Positions 1 to 29,829 of a stretch of DNA of 32,000 bases are shown piece by piece. Each line of letters begins with the position of its first letter. Positions within the stretch are counted from its first letter, which is position 1. The DNA is from Zestosphaera tikiterensis (GTDB taxonomy: Archaea > Thermoproteota > Thermoprotei_A > Sulfolobales > NBVN01): positions 510,001 through 542,000 of the forward strand of contig NBVN01000002.1 in assembly GCA_003056265.1 (NCBI GenBank), read 5' to 3'. Made by a program: the position numbers and the translations under genes. Below the pieces are notes generated by a model. That model was not told the DNA's origin. It did no database searches and saw only the letters and a program-made list of their open reading frames with translations.

Positions 1-1143
1 AACAATCGTCTCAACAGCCCAAGTAACTTCCGGAGCTCCATAACCTCTAATAGCGCATCCAGGGACTTTATTAGTGTATACAGCCCTACCTACGTACCTT
101 ATATTTCTCCATTTATATAGTGAGACAAACCAACCGAGTGAGGTTCCCAGGAGTGGATATGGCTGTACTTGATGTGCGCCTATATCTATAATGTTTTCAA
201 ACTCGCCACCTATTAAAAACCCTTCCTTCGTAGCCCCTGCTTTAATTCTGAAGTGCATTGAGAACCCTACGTGATCATACATATCCTCCTCCCTAGTTAA
301 CGCTATCTTAACAGGTTTCCTGGCTTTCAAGCAAAGGGCTACTGCTATAGGCACTATAACGTTTGTTTGTATGCTTGAGCCGAAACTACCGCCTATAGGG
401 ACTTTAACTACGTTGACTTTACTCTCCGGCAAGTCGAAGATCTGGCTAACTAATATCCTAGTGTTATGTATTGTCTGCGTTGTTGTGTATATAGTTATGC
501 TACCGTCCGTGTGGGGCACGCATAAAACCGCTTTAGGCTCTAACTGCATGTGATATCTTCTACCTGTCTTAAAGAACCTCTCGATAACTACGTCAGCTTT
601 TTTAAACGCTTCATCAACATCTCCTTCGGAATACGTTAATTCAGCACCTACGTTATTCTTAACCTCAACCCATTTATCACCTTTCATAATTCTTTCATGT
701 ATTGGAGGGGCGTCAGGTGACATAGCTTCGAAAGGATCTAATATAGGTTTACGTATGTTTTCGAACTCCACCTCCAATAACTCTAGAGCTCGTTGAGCCA
801 GTTCTTCACTTGAAGCCGCTACAGCAGCTATGGGATCACCAACGAACCTAGGTCTCTTAGTCAAGACTTGATGATCTTTAAACGTTACTTCATGAACGCT
901 TACTAACCTAGGGTTGTAGAGTTTTTGAGGTACGTCATCTGGAGTTATAACAACAGCGCCTAACCTCTCCGCTCTCTCTTTATTTATCCTTTTAACATCT
1001 GCGAAAGCGTAAGGACTTCTGAAGATCCTGCCGATTAACATGCCTGGGACTTCTAAGTCGTTAGTAAATTTAAGCGCTCCAGAAACCTTCGCTAAAGAGT
1101 CTTTCCTTAAAGTCTTTGAACCTAGGAAGCTCCAAGCAGTCAT
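1..1143 (-). CDS. Xanthine dehydrogenase/aldehyde oxidase-family molybdopterin-binding large subunit. Partial: the N-terminal 381 codons are in the window and the 3' end runs off the left edge.
   Basis: Not in the ORF track because no stop lies in the window. The reverse-complement ATG at 1141-1143 opens a frame that stays open to position 1. It begins MTAWSFLGSKTLRKDSLAKVSGALKFTNDLEVPGMLIGRIFRSPYAFADVKRI... and reaches ...CAIRGYGAPEVTWAVE at the edge. It is paralogous to the 777-aa subunit at 2618-4951 (compare FRGFGNPG). Confidence 0.8.
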   Translation of the reverse strand, partial: MTAWSFLGSKTLRKDSLAKVSGALKFTNDLEVPGMLIGRIFRSPYAFADVKRINKERAERLGAVVITPDDVPQKLYNPRLVSVHEVTFKDHQVLTKRPRFVGDPIAAVAASSEELAQRALELLEVEFENIRKPILDPFEAMSPDAPPIHERIMKGDKWVEVKNNVGAELTYSEGDVDEAFKKADVVIERFFKTGRRYHMQLEPKAVLCVPHTDGSITIYTTTQTIHNTRILVSQIFDLPESKVNVVKVPIGGSFGSSIQTNVIVPIAVALCLKARKPVKIALTREEDMYDHVGFSMHFRIKAGATKEGFLIGGEFENIIDIGAHQVQPYPLLGTSLGWFVSLYKWRNIRYVGRAVYTNKVPGCAIRGYGAPEVTWAVETIV

Positions 1144-25920: not shown

Positions 25921-26871
25921 ATGGTTGAATCCGCGGTTTCGGCGTCGATGTTTTTAATTTTAGTTATGCTTTCACTTTCTTCCGGTTTAGCCTTACTTTC
26001 TGAAAGGCTTGAAGTTAATGTTAGTGTTGAGACCGGCTTTACAGAGCTTTCTTTTGTTTCTGCTGACTGTCACTACTGTTCGTGTAGGGCTTCATGTCAA
26101 GCTAACGTGGTTAACGGTGGTGATGAAGTTCAAGTTTCTTTAAATAACGTATACTTCTCTTTTAAAGCTTTTGTTTATATGAAGTTAAGAAATACTGGAA
26201 CCATACCCGTTAAGGTTTTTGGGATTTACTTAAATGACTTGCTTATAGAGCCTTATAAGCTATATAAAATCGACTTAAATAACGACGGTTTTAAAGATGT
26301 TGAGGTAGTTTTAATTGATGGCATGCCCTTTAAATGTGATTATATGGGTTTAGACGATGAAGTAAGTGATGAAGGTAGTTTAAATGAGTTAAACACTACC
26401 TACGTTAACGAAAGCTTAAATGTCACGACAGCTAAAGAAGATTTAAAGAAGGATAGGGGTCCCACACCACCTACGGTAACTGACGTTGAAGTTAACGGTT
26501 GTTACGTTACGTTGCGATGGACTGAAGTCGAGGGCAGCGATTTATACCACGTTACTTGGGAGTACGACAGCGTGGTTGTCTGGGGTTCGCCTAAAGGTAC
26601 TCCACCACCTACTTCAGTAACTGTAGGTCCTTTACCTACGGGGTATTACTGCTTTAGAGTTAGTGCTCAAAACTTAGGTCGTGATGGGTGGCGTACTAAA
26701 TGGTCTTCACCGACTTGTGTTTTCGTGTCGTGCTTCCCTCAACCTAAGGTTATTCAGTTAGAACCCGGTGAATCTAAAACGTATTACTTAATAGTACATG
26801 CTCTAAATAGAGGTGATTATGAATTCGTAGTTAAACCGGCTTACGTTAGGTGGAATGAGTATAGGGGTTAA
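25921..26871 (+). CDS. Secreted TasA-like protein (paralogue 3) carrying a Cys cluster, an acidic glycosylation-sequon-rich insert and an FN3-like domain
   Basis: The signal region is MVESAVSASMFLILVMLSLSSGLA | LLSERLEVNVSVETG. Further elements are CHYCSCRASC, LNNVYFSFKAFVYMKLRNTGTIPVKVF, and an FN3-like PPTVTDVEVNGCYVTLRWTEVEGSDLYHVTWEY...LPTGYYCFRVSAQN. The C-terminus is YEFVVKPAYVRWNEYRG. GAGGTGGTG lies 7 nt upstream of the ATG at 25921. The track start is 25888. Confidence 0.6.
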   Translation: MVESAVSASMFLILVMLSLSSGLALLSERLEVNVSVETGFTELSFVSADCHYCSCRASCQANVVNGGDEVQVSLNNVYFSFKAFVYMKLRNTGTIPVKVFGIYLNDLLIEPYKLYKIDLNNDGFKDVEVVLIDGMPFKCDYMGLDDEVSDEGSLNELNTTYVNESLNVTTAKEDLKKDRGPTPPTVTDVEVNGCYVTLRWTEVEGSDLYHVTWEYDSVVVWGSPKGTPPPTSVTVGPLPTGYYCFRVSAQNLGRDGWRTKWSSPTCVFVSCFPQPKVIQLEPGESKTYYLIVHALNRGDYEFVVKPAYVRWNEYRG

Positions 26872-28120
26872 TAAAGTGTTTTTACGTTCTTTAAGTAATG
26901 AGTTGCGGGGGCTGCGTTTTAAGTTTCTAGCTTACGTAGCTTTAGCTCTTTTCATATTTATTTACTTCTACCCATTGATAATAACGCCTAAAGGCCTCAT
27001 ACCCTACGTAATACCCCCCACAACATCTTTAATTGTTTTCAGCATTCTCTACGGCGTAGTAGCTACGTTTAAACCTTACGAGGAGAGAGTGCTTAATTTA
27101 GTGATTCTCTTCTTCGTTATTAAGATCCTCACAGACCTAACGTTAGGTGTTGTTAAGGGGTTTGGGTTAAACATCTTAACCTTAACTTCATACGTAGGCA
27201 TAGCTATGAATTTAATGAGGGAGTTACCTACGGTGTTAGGTTTTGAAGTTGTTAGAGCTTACTTATTAAGTAAGGCGAGGGGAGGTAAGTCTGTAGTTGC
27301 TTTCCTATCGATATCTGCTGCCTTCGCTTTAATGAATGAACCTATAACTAGATACGTTAACATGCTTAACTCAAGTTATAATGAGGTAGTTAACTTCATG
27401 TTTAAGAACTACGTTCCCGCCTTAGCTCAAAACATGCTTTTAGGGATTCTCTACGTAAGCGGTGGGTTTAACGCCAACGCGCTTTACGCATTACTCGATA
27501 AACTCTACATATACACAACACCCCTACTCCCCAACATAAGTTTAGGGGTTAGATCCGTTATCGCCGTGATTCAAGCCTTCGTGTTCTTCTCCATCGTTGA
27601 AGCAACCTTAAAAGAGCAGGACGTCTTCAGTAAATACTCTTTCAAGCTATCTAAGAATTTCTTAAGCTATTTAATACCTGCTTTAATATTCCTTTTAGTA
27701 GGTGCTTTACTTCTAAGTAACGCTAGGCTCTTTGTAGTAAGCAGCGGTAGTATGGTACCAACTCTAAACGTTGGTGACGTAGTTTTAGTCGTTAAATCGA
27801 ATGAGGTGGGTGTTGGGGACATCATAGCTTTCTACGTAGGTTCTGAAGTAGTTATCCATAGGGTTTACGACGTAGTCGTTGATTCCGATGGCTCAACATA
27901 CTTCACAACTAAAGGCGATAATAACGACCACGTAGACCCGTTTAAGGTTGAGCCTCCGTACGTAGTGGGTAAGCTTGCTTTAGTTATTCCATACGTGGGT
28001 ATCATCTGGATTTACGTTATGAAGTTCTTCATAGAGTATTTAAACCTACTATCCTTCGTTTTCTTCTCTCTTATATTAACTCAATCATTAAGTTTTTCGA
28101 GGTGGTTATATGGTGAGTAA
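26855..28120 (+). CDS. Archaeal/eukaryal-type signal peptidase I (SipW/Sec11-like, S26) fused to an N-terminal ~265-aa polytopic membrane domain of unknown function
   Basis: The catalytic boxes lie in the C-terminal third: VVSSGSMVPTLNVGDVVLV (Ser), VVIHRV (His) and TKGDNNDHVD. About 7 hydrophobic helices precede them and about 2 follow. The gene overlaps the upstream gene by 17 nt and the downstream gene by 11 nt. Confidence 0.8.
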   Translation: MSIGVNKVFLRSLSNELRGLRFKFLAYVALALFIFIYFYPLIITPKGLIPYVIPPTTSLIVFSILYGVVATFKPYEERVLNLVILFFVIKILTDLTLGVVKGFGLNILTLTSYVGIAMNLMRELPTVLGFEVVRAYLLSKARGGKSVVAFLSISAAFALMNEPITRYVNMLNSSYNEVVNFMFKNYVPALAQNMLLGILYVSGGFNANALYALLDKLYIYTTPLLPNISLGVRSVIAVIQAFVFFSIVEATLKEQDVFSKYSFKLSKNFLSYLIPALIFLLVGALLLSNARLFVVSSGSMVPTLNVGDVVLVVKSNEVGVGDIIAFYVGSEVVIHRVYDVVVDSDGSTYFTTKGDNNDHVDPFKVEPPYVVGKLALVIPYVGIIWIYVMKFFIEYLNLLSFVFFSLILTQSLSFSRWLYGE

Positions 28121-29204
28121 ATTAAACCTTAAGTTAAAAGTATTTAAATCCCAGGGTTTTAGGATAGCGTTACTTATAGTTTTAACTACGGCTTTCGTGA
28201 TATCCACCGCTGGTTTAGTATATTCCTACAGCGTGCCTACAGCAACGCGTGAAGTATATACCTACGTTAAAGTAAGTCAGAAGTTTAGCGTGGATTACGT
28301 AGCTTACGTTAAGGAATCGCTAATCTACGATAATAGAACCGTCATAACCTCGCGAGAGCCTATATACTTTAAACTTTTGAAGGGGCTTAACGTAACTTAT
28401 ACTTACGTATTAACTTCAGAAACACCTATTAAAAACGTTAGAGGGTCGTACACCGTTACGTTAGCTTTAAACACTACATCGTGGAGTAAGACCTTCACCA
28501 TTGCGGGAGGTGATTTAAGTGAAGTGCTTAATAAGACGAACTACCTATATATAAACTTCACAGAGCTTTTCGACTACATAAGTAAGGTGGATAAGGAGGT
28601 AGGTGGGAGTAGCAAAACATACGACATCATCTACTACTTCAGCTTTAAACCAACTATCACCGCAGTAGTCAACAATTCTAAAACTCTCACATATCAATTA
28701 AGCCTAACCCCTAAAGTTAAGGTAAGCTATGAAGTAGGTAAGAGCGTTATAGACTTCACAGTTCAAGACACTGAGAAAGAGTTTAAAGACACCTACGAGT
28801 TAATTAACCCAACATACGTTAGGGTTTTCGGGCTTACGTTAGATTTAAGCGTATTTAGACTTGCTTCCATGACCTCTTCATTCATCTGCTCAGGTTTAAT
28901 AGCCTTCATCGCGATAACCTCAACGATATCCTCAAGTAGGGAGAAGCCTTTAGTCGATAAGTTAATTAATAAGTATAAAGACATCATAATAGCTTCAACA
29001 AGCGATGAGATTGGAACAACGCAAGCAAGCAGGAAGGTCGTGCTTACAGACTTTAAAGATATGGTGAAAGTAGCTACTATAAGGAAGAAACCAATAATAA
29101 AAGTCTCTAACGAAGCGGGGAGTAACGTAAGGTTTATACTAGTAGATGATGACGTAATTTACGAGTATATACCAAGCGAAGAAAGTTTTAAAATCCAAAA
29201 ATAG
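28110..29204 (+). CDS. Bitopic/bi-anchored membrane protein of unknown function: TM, ~210-aa extracellular beta-rich domain, TM, ~90-aa cytoplasmic tail. Putative fibre assembly or anchoring accessory.
   Basis: The TM segments are FRIALLIVLTTAFVISTAGLVY and SSFICSGLIAFIAITSTI. There are six N-X-S/T sequons in the predicted external segment (NRT, NVT, NTT, NKT, NFT, NNS). The gene is translationally coupled to the peptidase gene. Confidence 0.55.
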   Translation: MVSKLNLKLKVFKSQGFRIALLIVLTTAFVISTAGLVYSYSVPTATREVYTYVKVSQKFSVDYVAYVKESLIYDNRTVITSREPIYFKLLKGLNVTYTYVLTSETPIKNVRGSYTVTLALNTTSWSKTFTIAGGDLSEVLNKTNYLYINFTELFDYISKVDKEVGGSSKTYDIIYYFSFKPTITAVVNNSKTLTYQLSLTPKVKVSYEVGKSVIDFTVQDTEKEFKDTYELINPTYVRVFGLTLDLSVFRLASMTSSFICSGLIAFIAITSTISSSREKPLVDKLINKYKDIIIASTSDEIGTTQASRKVVLTDFKDMVKVATIRKKPIIKVSNEAGSNVRFILVDDDVIYEYIPSEESFKIQK

Positions 29205-29205
29205 T

Positions 29206-29829
29206 TTAAGTTGAATTTAACTCAAGTATTCTTTTAGCTAGAAACTCACTCATGCGGTCTAAATCATCGTATTCGTTGTAGGGAATTACATTCTCTTTAA
29301 AGAATGTATTGGCACCGCTTAAAAGCTCTGTAAGTTTGTCATATATCTTCGACGGTACGAAACACGTTACTTTCCGACCGGTAGCTTTCGAATGTACGTA
29401 AGATATGAAAACTTCGATAACACCGTTTTCAACGTCCTCCGAAGGCTCTATAATAACTACTTCAGAAAGCTCGGCTCCTGCGTTACCCTTTTTACTTAGA
29501 ACATTCACGCGAATTTTAATGCTATCAGCTAATCTCCTGTCTTTAGCATCTACAGCCTGCAGCAATTGCTCAAGCTTAAATAGGAAGTCCCTACCTTTAG
29601 ATGTTAAGGTGAAATACATGTGTCTGCCGTCGCTTATAGGTATTATAAGTTCGCTACTCATTAAGCCTCTTAAGTATTTATCTAAGGTGCGGGTGTTTAG
29701 TCCTGAAGCATATAGGACGTGAGTTTTTAAGGTATAGTTTTTAGAAGCTATGCATTTAAGTATTCTATGCAGAATCTCTAAATTAGAACGTTTTTGTTTG
29801 CTAGTGGACGAATGATATGTACTAATCAT
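29206..29829 (-). CDS. Winged-helix (HTH_45-like) transcriptional regulator with a C-terminal domain of unknown function
   Basis: The N-terminus RSNLEILHRILKCIASKNYTLKTHVLYASGLNTRTLDKYLRGLMSSELI....YFTLTSKGRDFL is a typical small archaeal wHTH. A GTTTATAAAAG TATA-like box lies about 35 nt upstream. Confidence 0.65.
   Translation of the reverse strand: MISTYHSSTSKQKRSNLEILHRILKCIASKNYTLKTHVLYASGLNTRTLDKYLRGLMSSELIIPISDGRHMYFTLTSKGRDFLFKLEQLLQAVDAKDRRLADSIKIRVNVLSKKGNAGAELSEVVIIEPSEDVENGVIEVFISYVHSKATGRKVTCFVPSKIYDKLTELLSGANTFFKENVIPYNEYDDLDRMSEFLAKRILELNST

Follow-up and report, generated by a model that had tools for sequence, protein, structure and literature searches.

The question raised by this locus is what a large membrane module is doing in front of an otherwise ordinary signal peptidase. 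The locus lies in a 32,000-nucleotide stretch of the archaeon Zestosphaera tikiterensis (GenBank assembly GCA_003056265.1, contig NBVN01000002.1, positions 510,001 to 542,000, forward strand), which was analysed at its full length and is referred to here as the window. At 26855..28120 on the plus strand, one unbroken open reading frame (ORF) with an ATG start encodes 421 amino acids, in which an eight-helix membrane module (residues 1-262, named ND in this work) is followed by a signal-anchor helix, a signal peptidase I (SPase) domain of the Sec11/SipW type and a C-terminal helix; we refer to the whole protein as ND-SPase. Our results indicate that this is a real single gene, that is, an ordinary archaeal-type signal peptidase behind a conserved eight-helix membrane module, and that ND is a conserved, separable component tied to the systems that build AbpX pili. 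Regarding its function, we would give even chances to the reading in which ND-SPase is the dedicated signal peptidase of the AbpX operon, and ND a non-catalytic, AbpX-specific platform that positions the pilin precursors. The features of the gene, all on the plus strand, are as follows:

26855..28120, plus strand: whole ND-SPase gene (PUA33593.1 / A0A2R7Y7S8), annotated 'signal peptidase I'
26855..27640, plus strand: ND, eight-helix membrane module, residues 1-262, from the AlphaFold2 (AF2) model, positive-inside counts and family search
27245..27256, plus strand: E131-x-x-R134 in helix 4, the sole invariant polar residues of ND in 111 sequences
27521..27532, plus strand: P223-L-L-P226, a Pro-x-x-Pro motif that is invariant and lies in loop 7-8 (predicted outside), from the alignment and the AF2 model
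27653..27712, plus strand: helix 9 (residues 267-286), the signal-anchor of the peptidase itself, with a nearly invariant G283, from the AF2 model and the alignment
27716..28009, plus strand: Sec11/SipW-type SPase I catalytic domain (residues 288-385), with S299, H335 and D361 invariant
27998..28108, plus strand: C-terminal helix (residues 382-418), the tenth transmembrane (TM) helix, from the AF2 model

The original prediction, made from the letters of the window, had described a signal peptidase I fused to a polytopic membrane domain, and had named a mis-joined separate gene as one way in which this could prove wrong. Both halves of the protein were searched for with hidden Markov models (HMMs) in 153 representatives, comprising the listed matches of the family search described below and the seed homologues, and in 134 of them (88%) ND and SPase are joined in the same order, in archaea and bacteria alike and typically in 380-440 aa. 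As the window ORF is uninterrupted and the fusion is common to so many representatives, a two-gene mis-join or a frameshift was rejected, and the predicted fusion is borne out. Furthermore, a 99%-identical copy of the gene is present in independent assemblies. The ORF shares 17 nt with the gene upstream (25888..26871) and 11 nt with the gene downstream (28110..29204).

The ten-helix architecture of this locus is already reported. The abpX operon of Z. tikiterensis NZ3 is the worked example of a preprint of January 2026 (bioRxiv 10.64898/2026.01.04.697558), and the exact sequences of the window operon genes are the accessions of that example locus. According to the preprint, the components of abpX loci are the major AbpX pilin, a minor subunit that is AbpX-like, the tip protein, SPase I and an accessory protein with DUF5305, and the AbpX-linked dedicated SPase has ten TM helices instead of two; the AbpX operon, the ten helices and the adjacent DUF5305 gene are all found here. 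The extra helices are given one sentence in the preprint, with no analysis and no proposed function, and no other papers mentioning them were found in the literature. What is new in this work is the size of the family, its invariant residues, its lack of relatives, the separability of the module, and its natural fusions to pilins, with and without the peptidase.

Regarding the peptidase domain, the Ser/His boxes that the original prediction had likened to SipW and Sec11 are all present (S297-G-S299-M300, H335-R336, G354-D355-N-N357 and D361), and residues 266-388 match the NCBIfam model of archaeal signal peptidase I (TIGR02228) with 76.8 bits against a cut-off of 51.85. The Pfam models S26 (24.1 against 22.9) and S24 (28.1 against 23.3) also score above their cut-offs. 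The NCBIfam SipW model NF046067 is matched at E=2e-14, but its 53.6 bits are far under the 190-bit cut-off, and equivalence with Bacillus subtilis SipW was rejected despite the relationship. In an alignment of 111 sequences, S299, H335, R336, G354 and D361 are invariant, and the conservation of D355 and N357 is 96% or higher. A profile search of PDB sequences matched human SEC11C/A at 2e-25, and a Foldseek search of the PDB with the full AF2 model gave 7p2q_A and 7p2p_A (SEC11C/A) as top matches, followed by SipA, LexA and UmuD; the local confidence of the model (predicted local distance difference test, pLDDT) is 94-98 over residues 290-370. Judging from these residues, the peptidase is of the S26B (Sec11/SipW) type with Ser299, His335 and Asp361, and appears catalytically intact.

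When the catalytic part alone was used as query, ordinary archaeal SPases of 154-242 aa were retrieved at 30-50% identity, in line with the earlier statement that such enzymes are short; the N-terminal module has thus been added to what is otherwise a standard enzyme. No Zestosphaera paralogue of the SPase domain was found among the word-indexed homologue matches, in which short archaeal SPases were retrieved, and no other ORF in the window matched the HMMs for SPase or for ND. A scan of genome contigs with the window protein gave nothing but ordinary SPases of Clostridia, matched through a single peptide pattern.

The structure of ND was modelled twice. With 7 sequences, AF2 gave poor confidence for ND (pLDDT 63) and the model was discarded, whereas the 111-sequence alignment (A4) yielded a pLDDT of 89.8 and a predicted template modelling score (pTM) of 0.81. 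In this model, the helices of ND span residues 7-42, 49-69, 77-101, 113-140, 146-160 (plus a short one, 164-171), 175-203, 205-221 and 230-255, and are followed by the anchor helix (267-286), the beta-rich catalytic domain (290-378) and the last helix (382-418). Hence nine helices lie ahead of the catalytic domain and one behind, rather than about seven and two as first predicted, and the total of ten matches the count of the preprint; a tail of at least 30 aa, enough for the tenth helix, is seen in just 20 of the 111 relatives. The counts of Lys and Arg per loop across the family obey the positive-inside rule: the basic segments (N-terminus, loops 2-3 and 4-5, linker 8-9) are predicted inside, and the loops that are not basic (1-2, 3-4, 5-6 and 7-8) are predicted outside. 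The module would thus have its N-terminus inside and loops 3-4 and 7-8 on the outside. These two outer loops carry short beta-strands in the model, at 103-105 (in the G102-F-G loop) and 224-226 (in P223-L-L-P226).

No relatives of ND were detected by fold or by sequence; in the original prediction, too, no motif had been recognised in the N-terminal domain. None appeared among the 50 Foldseek PDB matches listed for the full model (E up to 0.25), and the profile search of PDB sequences gave SPases as its only credible matches; weak and inconsistent matches of the ND region to an ABC transporter, cytochrome oxidase subunit 2 and YnaI were taken as TM noise. Pfam gave no match to the N-domain of the window protein alone, even at E≤10, and nothing consistent beyond S24/S26 in the 111 full-length members; six N-domains were scanned as well, and no NCBIfam model matched ND. 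An internal 4+4 repeat was also rejected (hhalign probability 0.35%).

The conservation within ND is concentrated in loops of the predicted outer face. The members of the 111-sequence alignment are about 25% identical, and E131, R134, P223 and P226 are invariant among them, with G98, N119, P188, G204 and Y211 conserved in at least 92%. Four consensus stretches were recognised: GLxxGFGxSPY at the end of helix 3 and in loop 3-4, NxxxxxxxLxGxExxRAxL in helix 4, LPxxAxNxLATYLAxxGGP in helices 6-7, and FxWxSPILPxLxW in loop 7-8. Mapped on the predicted topology, an aromatic/proline cluster occupies the outer face (Y37, Y51, P55, W58, G98, GFGxSPY, N119, W220, PxxP and W230), and a second cluster lies toward the cytoplasmic end (E131, R134, Y198, G203-G204 and Y211). 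The best-conserved residues of ND map to the predicted outer face, the side where SPase I acts. Residues 1-265 of the window protein contain no His, Cys or Trp, as had been stated from the sequence for the first two, and no column of conserved His, Cys or Asp exists in ND across the 111 sequences (maximum frequencies H 0.40, C 0.09, D 0.41).

In order to estimate the extent of the family, the N-domain profile was scored against 1.84 billion cluster representatives, and 1,504 were matched at E≤1e-3, 1,151 at E≤1e-10 and 262 at E≤1e-30. Word-indexed searches were far less productive: one retrieved just five distant proteins of the same architecture, which served as profile seeds, and the ND alignment found 6 proteins, a limit set by the word index.

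The module also occurs without its peptidase and joined to other partners, and the corresponding positions in the related loci are:

L024:6336-7760: ND-pilin fusion P0173/P0028
L027:6001-7479: ND-pilin fusion P0087
L022:8001-9065 (loci L022/L023): ND-pilin fusion P0178/P0065
L026:6001-8202: triple fusion P0075
L028:5001-6212 and L029:1197-2408: split ND and SPase ORFs

In the ND-pilin fusions (P0028, P0065 and P0087), ND is followed by a linker rich in Pro/Thr and Lys, a signal-peptide-like helix and an AbpX-like pilin (…SLAYPYWTETLNI…, …TLAYSHWTDTIDI…). These proteins bear dockerin or Ig-like domains, retain every ND motif and were seen in several assemblies of independent origin. Directly upstream of them are free AbpX-like pilin genes, and no SPase or DUF5305 gene was called in the fetched flanks of L024, L022/L023 and L027. 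Triple fusions were found in 6 of the 8 long representatives (P0075, P0098, P0106, P0116, P0131 and P0147), in the order ND, SPase and tenth TM helix, Arg-rich loop, signal-like helix and pilin modules (…AYS/HWSETIYI…, where the slash here and below marks the predicted cleavage site); the extra domains identified in two of them are SdrD_B (P0075) and CBM96 (P0098). As read from their sequences, the triple fusions are an enzyme covalently joined to a substrate-like domain. In the pilin modules fused directly to ND, the predicted P1 residue is mostly Ser, and once Pro, while it is Ala or Gly in the free pilins; the fused pilins might therefore be cleaved poorly or not at all, that is, they might act as a membrane anchor.

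A stand-alone form of the domain, for which the original prediction had advised a search, was also found (P0126, locus L030), as well as a split form in L028/L029, in which a single frame holds two ORFs, one for ND (263 aa) and one for an SPase of 128 aa. A single TAA lies between them with an ATG 18 nt downstream, and the DNA is identical in an ENA and a JGI assembly; the arrangement may be a functional split, a pseudogene with a nonsense mutation or a case of stop-codon read-through. In every informative locus, the genes adjoining the ND-containing gene are AbpX-like pilins with the cleavage and donor-strand signature. DUF5305 was seen only at loci also having an SPase domain, and was not found in the fetched flanks of the ND-pilin loci. 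In one further locus, on an NCBI MAG contig (L025:7231-11750), the 4.5 kb downstream of the module-SPase gene carry no called genes, a run of N and an apparent long tandem repeat in translation; the gap in this stretch could hide a DUF5305 gene.

In the window, ND-SPase is the fourth of five closely packed genes on the plus strand (24524-29204). The other members of the operon, and the gene that faces it, are:

24524..25132, plus strand: AbpX-type major pilin (A0A2R7Y7S4), with a signal peptide and then a donor strand, ...GAALA/MWSETLKVNV
25143..25832, plus strand: AbpX-like minor pilin, ...SVGVA/MWSETLRVNV, the minor subunit named in the preprint
25888..26871, plus strand: predicted tip protein with a donor-strand-like N-terminus, ...SSGLA/LLSERLEVNV, also in the preprint
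28110..29204, plus strand: putative SPase accessory protein of the DUF5305 family (A0A2R7Y7T3, 364 aa), from BLASTP and the UniProt name
29206..29829, minus strand: putative winged-helix regulator (HTH_45 / Sso10a family), convergent with the operon, from Pfam and NCBIfam

The TasA-like nature that had been suggested for the neighbours is supported by the first gene, whose 202-aa product matches AbpX of PDB 9sj2 at E=2.3e-7, the alignment beginning at W37 of AMWSETLKVNV. This length counts from the first ATG; NCBI and UniProt give 191 aa from M12 (MNTKKALG...), and the shorter start leaves a 25-residue signal peptide, which is more typical. The three upstream proteins each have a signal peptide with a small-x-small site, and the donor-strand signature starts one residue later; in every neighbouring pilin, of the window and of the related loci, x-W-S/T-E-T-L follows the small-x-small site. 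In the tip protein, Leu replaces the Trp of the pilins (LLSERLEV), and the C-terminal region (…VTLRWTEVEGSDLYHVTWEY…) resembles a fibronectin-III/Ig-like insert; Pfam gave no match to this protein. The product of 28110..29204 gave no Pfam match of its own at E≤0.1, and was assigned by BLASTP (5e-20) to a protein with a Pfam DUF5305 domain in the same position beside the homologue P0002.

Operons that combine a fibre with its own signal peptidase are known from other systems. In B. subtilis, SipW of the tapA-sipW-tasA operon is likewise an archaeal/ER-type Ser-His SPase I within a TasA-family fibre operon, and the P2' residue is aromatic both in its substrate TasA (Phe) and in the AbpX pilins, the predicted substrates of ND-SPase (Trp); SipW differs in lacking the eight-helix N-terminal module. 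LepB of E. coli is inefficient in cleaving TasA, which has Phe at P2', and the processing of TasA falls to SipW, a dedicated archaeal-like enzyme (PMC10269814). The haloarchaeal Tat-fimbriae offer a second parallel, as TafD and TafG are an SPase and a DUF5305 protein within a pilus operon (PMC11821415, PMC12337348), and deletion of tafD abolishes pilin processing and fibres (PMC11821415). TafD differs from ND-SPase in having four TM helices, an extra C-terminal outside domain and no ND, and its substrates use the Tat pathway. By analogy with such systems, we hold with high confidence that the peptidase part of ND-SPase is the dedicated processing enzyme of the AbpX-type pilins.

In the explanation that we favour, the SPase domain on the outer membrane face would cut each of the three upstream pilin-like proteins behind its signal peptide, at the small-x-small site (A-L-A/M-W-S-E-T-L). 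The donor strand begins one residue past this site, so the cut would release the N-terminal strand for polymerisation. ND would hold the pilin precursors beside the catalytic domain or the fibre base, with the signal peptide in the bilayer and the donor strand at the outer surface, and in this way polymerisation of the donor strand, and perhaps anchoring, would be coupled to cleavage. ND-SPase and the DUF5305 protein may also join in a peptidase assembly of many helices, with a function comparable to that of the eukaryotic signal peptidase complex; the preprint had itself likened DUF5305 (a beta-sandwich, two TM helices and a cytoplasmic domain) to the accessory subunits of that complex. ND is presumed to be non-catalytic in this scheme, and its part as a platform or docking site is put forward tentatively, at slightly under an even chance; it is made more plausible by the natural fusions of the module to pilins.

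Several findings weigh against this explanation. The Zestosphaera protein is a divergent member of its family, lacking W58, the SPY motif, W220 and W230, and docking at the outer face may therefore be weaker here. An invariant Glu/Arg pair within a helix (E131 and R134) might point to catalysis or ligand binding instead of scaffolding. Pilin fusions are a minority (9 of the 153 representatives), and the split pair of L028/L029 could be a nonsense pseudogene. Moreover, a separate housekeeping SPase was looked for in the 32-kb window, and none was found there.

The best surviving alternative, which we nonetheless judge unlikely, is that ND is purely a structural scaffold of the peptidase, a fused equivalent of SPCS1/SPCS2 that thins or shapes the membrane and has no pilin-specific role. 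The eukaryotic signal peptidase complex (SEC11A/C with SPCS1, SPCS2 and SPCS3; 7p2p, 7p2q) is the closest solved relative of the catalytic domain by both profile and fold, and the two share a catalytic unit surrounded by many TM helices, although the extra helices of ND-SPase are in cis and N-terminal. Sec11 acts inside a multi-helix 'TM window' that hosts the h-region of the signal peptide (PMC13385932), and helices 5 (15 aa) and 7 (17 aa) of ND are short enough to be compatible with local thinning of this kind. The pTM of the model suggests that ND packs together with the helices of the peptidase into a single unit, and the prevalence of ND in cis with SPase (88% of the examined representatives) fits a scaffold as well. 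No similarity of sequence or fold between ND and SPCS1/2/3 was detected. What speaks for a pilin-directed platform over a pure scaffold is that the conserved surface and the invariant motifs are kept in proteins without a peptidase, near which no SPase or DUF5305 gene was called, and that fusions to pilins have arisen repeatedly; in addition, ND genes occur only beside AbpX-type pilins in the informative loci.

It is quite unlikely, in our view, that ND represents a new kind of enzyme acting within the membrane, such as a glutamate-based hydrolase that cuts or clears the pilin signal peptide after SPase or in its place. The proposal draws on the full invariance of E131 and R134, and the conservation of N119 and Y211 in at least 92%, within the helices of sequences about 25% identical, and on the ND-pilin fusions at loci with no SPase gene nearby. 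Furthermore, the GFEVVRAYL segment, said in the original prediction to recall vaguely the CPBP intramembrane proteases, does contain these two invariant polar residues, and its ExxR in helix 4 loosely recalls CPBP motif 1. CPBP/Rce1-like proteases carry EExxxR, FxxxH and HxxxN/D motifs with two catalytic His. ND shares with this family (PF02517) a polytopic build and a Glu...Arg motif in helix 4; it differs in the spacing of that motif (ExxR against EExxxR) and lacks both His motifs. PF02517 matches one of the 111 members (E=0.02) and not the window protein, no column exceeds 0.40 His, and no 4CAD-like match was among the 50 Foldseek matches listed, so a relationship to CPBP is not supported at the sequence level. 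Other intramembrane chemistries rely on Ser/His (rhomboid), Asp/Asp (GxGD), HExxH (S2P) or Cys/Arg/His (exo/archaeosortase), and were excluded for ND, which has no conserved His, Cys or Asp. There is likewise no conserved Ser or Lys to complete a known catalytic set, no protease family was consistently matched in Pfam or NCBIfam, no match to ND was among the 50 best of Foldseek, and the predicted topology would place E131 and R134 close to where helix 4 ends on the cytoplasmic side, at a distance from the cleavage site at the outer face.

More improbable is a transporter or channel that is merely co-encoded, for instance for Ca2+ in AbpX assembly or for a lipid-linked glycan. Eight TM helices with a buried Glu/Arg pair would suit such a role, as would the calcium dependence of AbpX polymerisation (bioRxiv 10.64898/2026.01.04.697558); however, ND has no internal repeat and no match to a transporter family in Pfam or NCBIfam, its conservation lies in surface loops and not along a pore, and a protein-protein function accounts better for the direct fusions to pilins and peptidase. 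Finally, we consider it very improbable that the architecture reflects mis-joined genes or the housekeeping SPase of the lineage, for which the two ORFs of the L028/L029 relative and the single SPase of the window could be cited, since the reading frame, the shared fusion and the independent copy argue against the former, and the latter appears unlikely for a gene always found within AbpX operons and far longer than ordinary archaeal SPases.

The platform reading, or an enzymatic one, would have consequences beyond this locus. TasA-superfamily fibres (TasA, AbpA, AbpX, Tafi, threads and cannulae) are an emerging cross-domain basis of biofilm matrices, and are usually described as requiring signal peptidase alone. 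ND travels with AbpX pilins, fused to the peptidase, the pilin or both, and is thus a candidate for a missing membrane step such as docking, cleavage timing or anchoring. It is possible, though doubtful, that ND is an undescribed membrane constituent, widespread (over 1,000 clusters) among the AbpX/TasA-like fibre systems of archaea and bacteria, either as a platform for assembly and anchoring or as a new Glu/Arg intramembrane enzyme. In this reading, ND would bind both the signal peptide and the donor strand of the pilin, and would gate cleavage in such a way that the donor strands polymerise at the cell surface. If so, the 'chaperone-free' fibres would depend on a dedicated membrane machine, usher- or sortase-like in its role. 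ND-SPase may also provide a simple prokaryotic, single-chain counterpart in which to examine how Sec11-type peptidases use the surrounding TM helices in substrate selection.

As for the remaining neighbours, HTH_45 genes like the one convergent with the operon also flank three of the related loci (L024, 3862-4152; L026, 442-699; L027, 3682-3876), and this gene, present in four of the loci examined, is a candidate for a dedicated regulator of archaeal AbpX/module loci. Directly upstream of the pilin operon, 23932-24435 (plus strand) encodes an archaemetzincin-like zinc protease (Pfam Peptidase_M54, E=5.7e-22). It is preceded by a gene at 22000-23871 (plus strand) for a 623-aa fusion of a nucleotidyltransferase and a CDP-alcohol phosphatidyltransferase with extra C-terminal TM helices, named 'bifunctional IPC transferase and DIPP synthase' in UniProt; DIPP synthase has a role in making the thermoprotectant di-myo-inositol phosphate.

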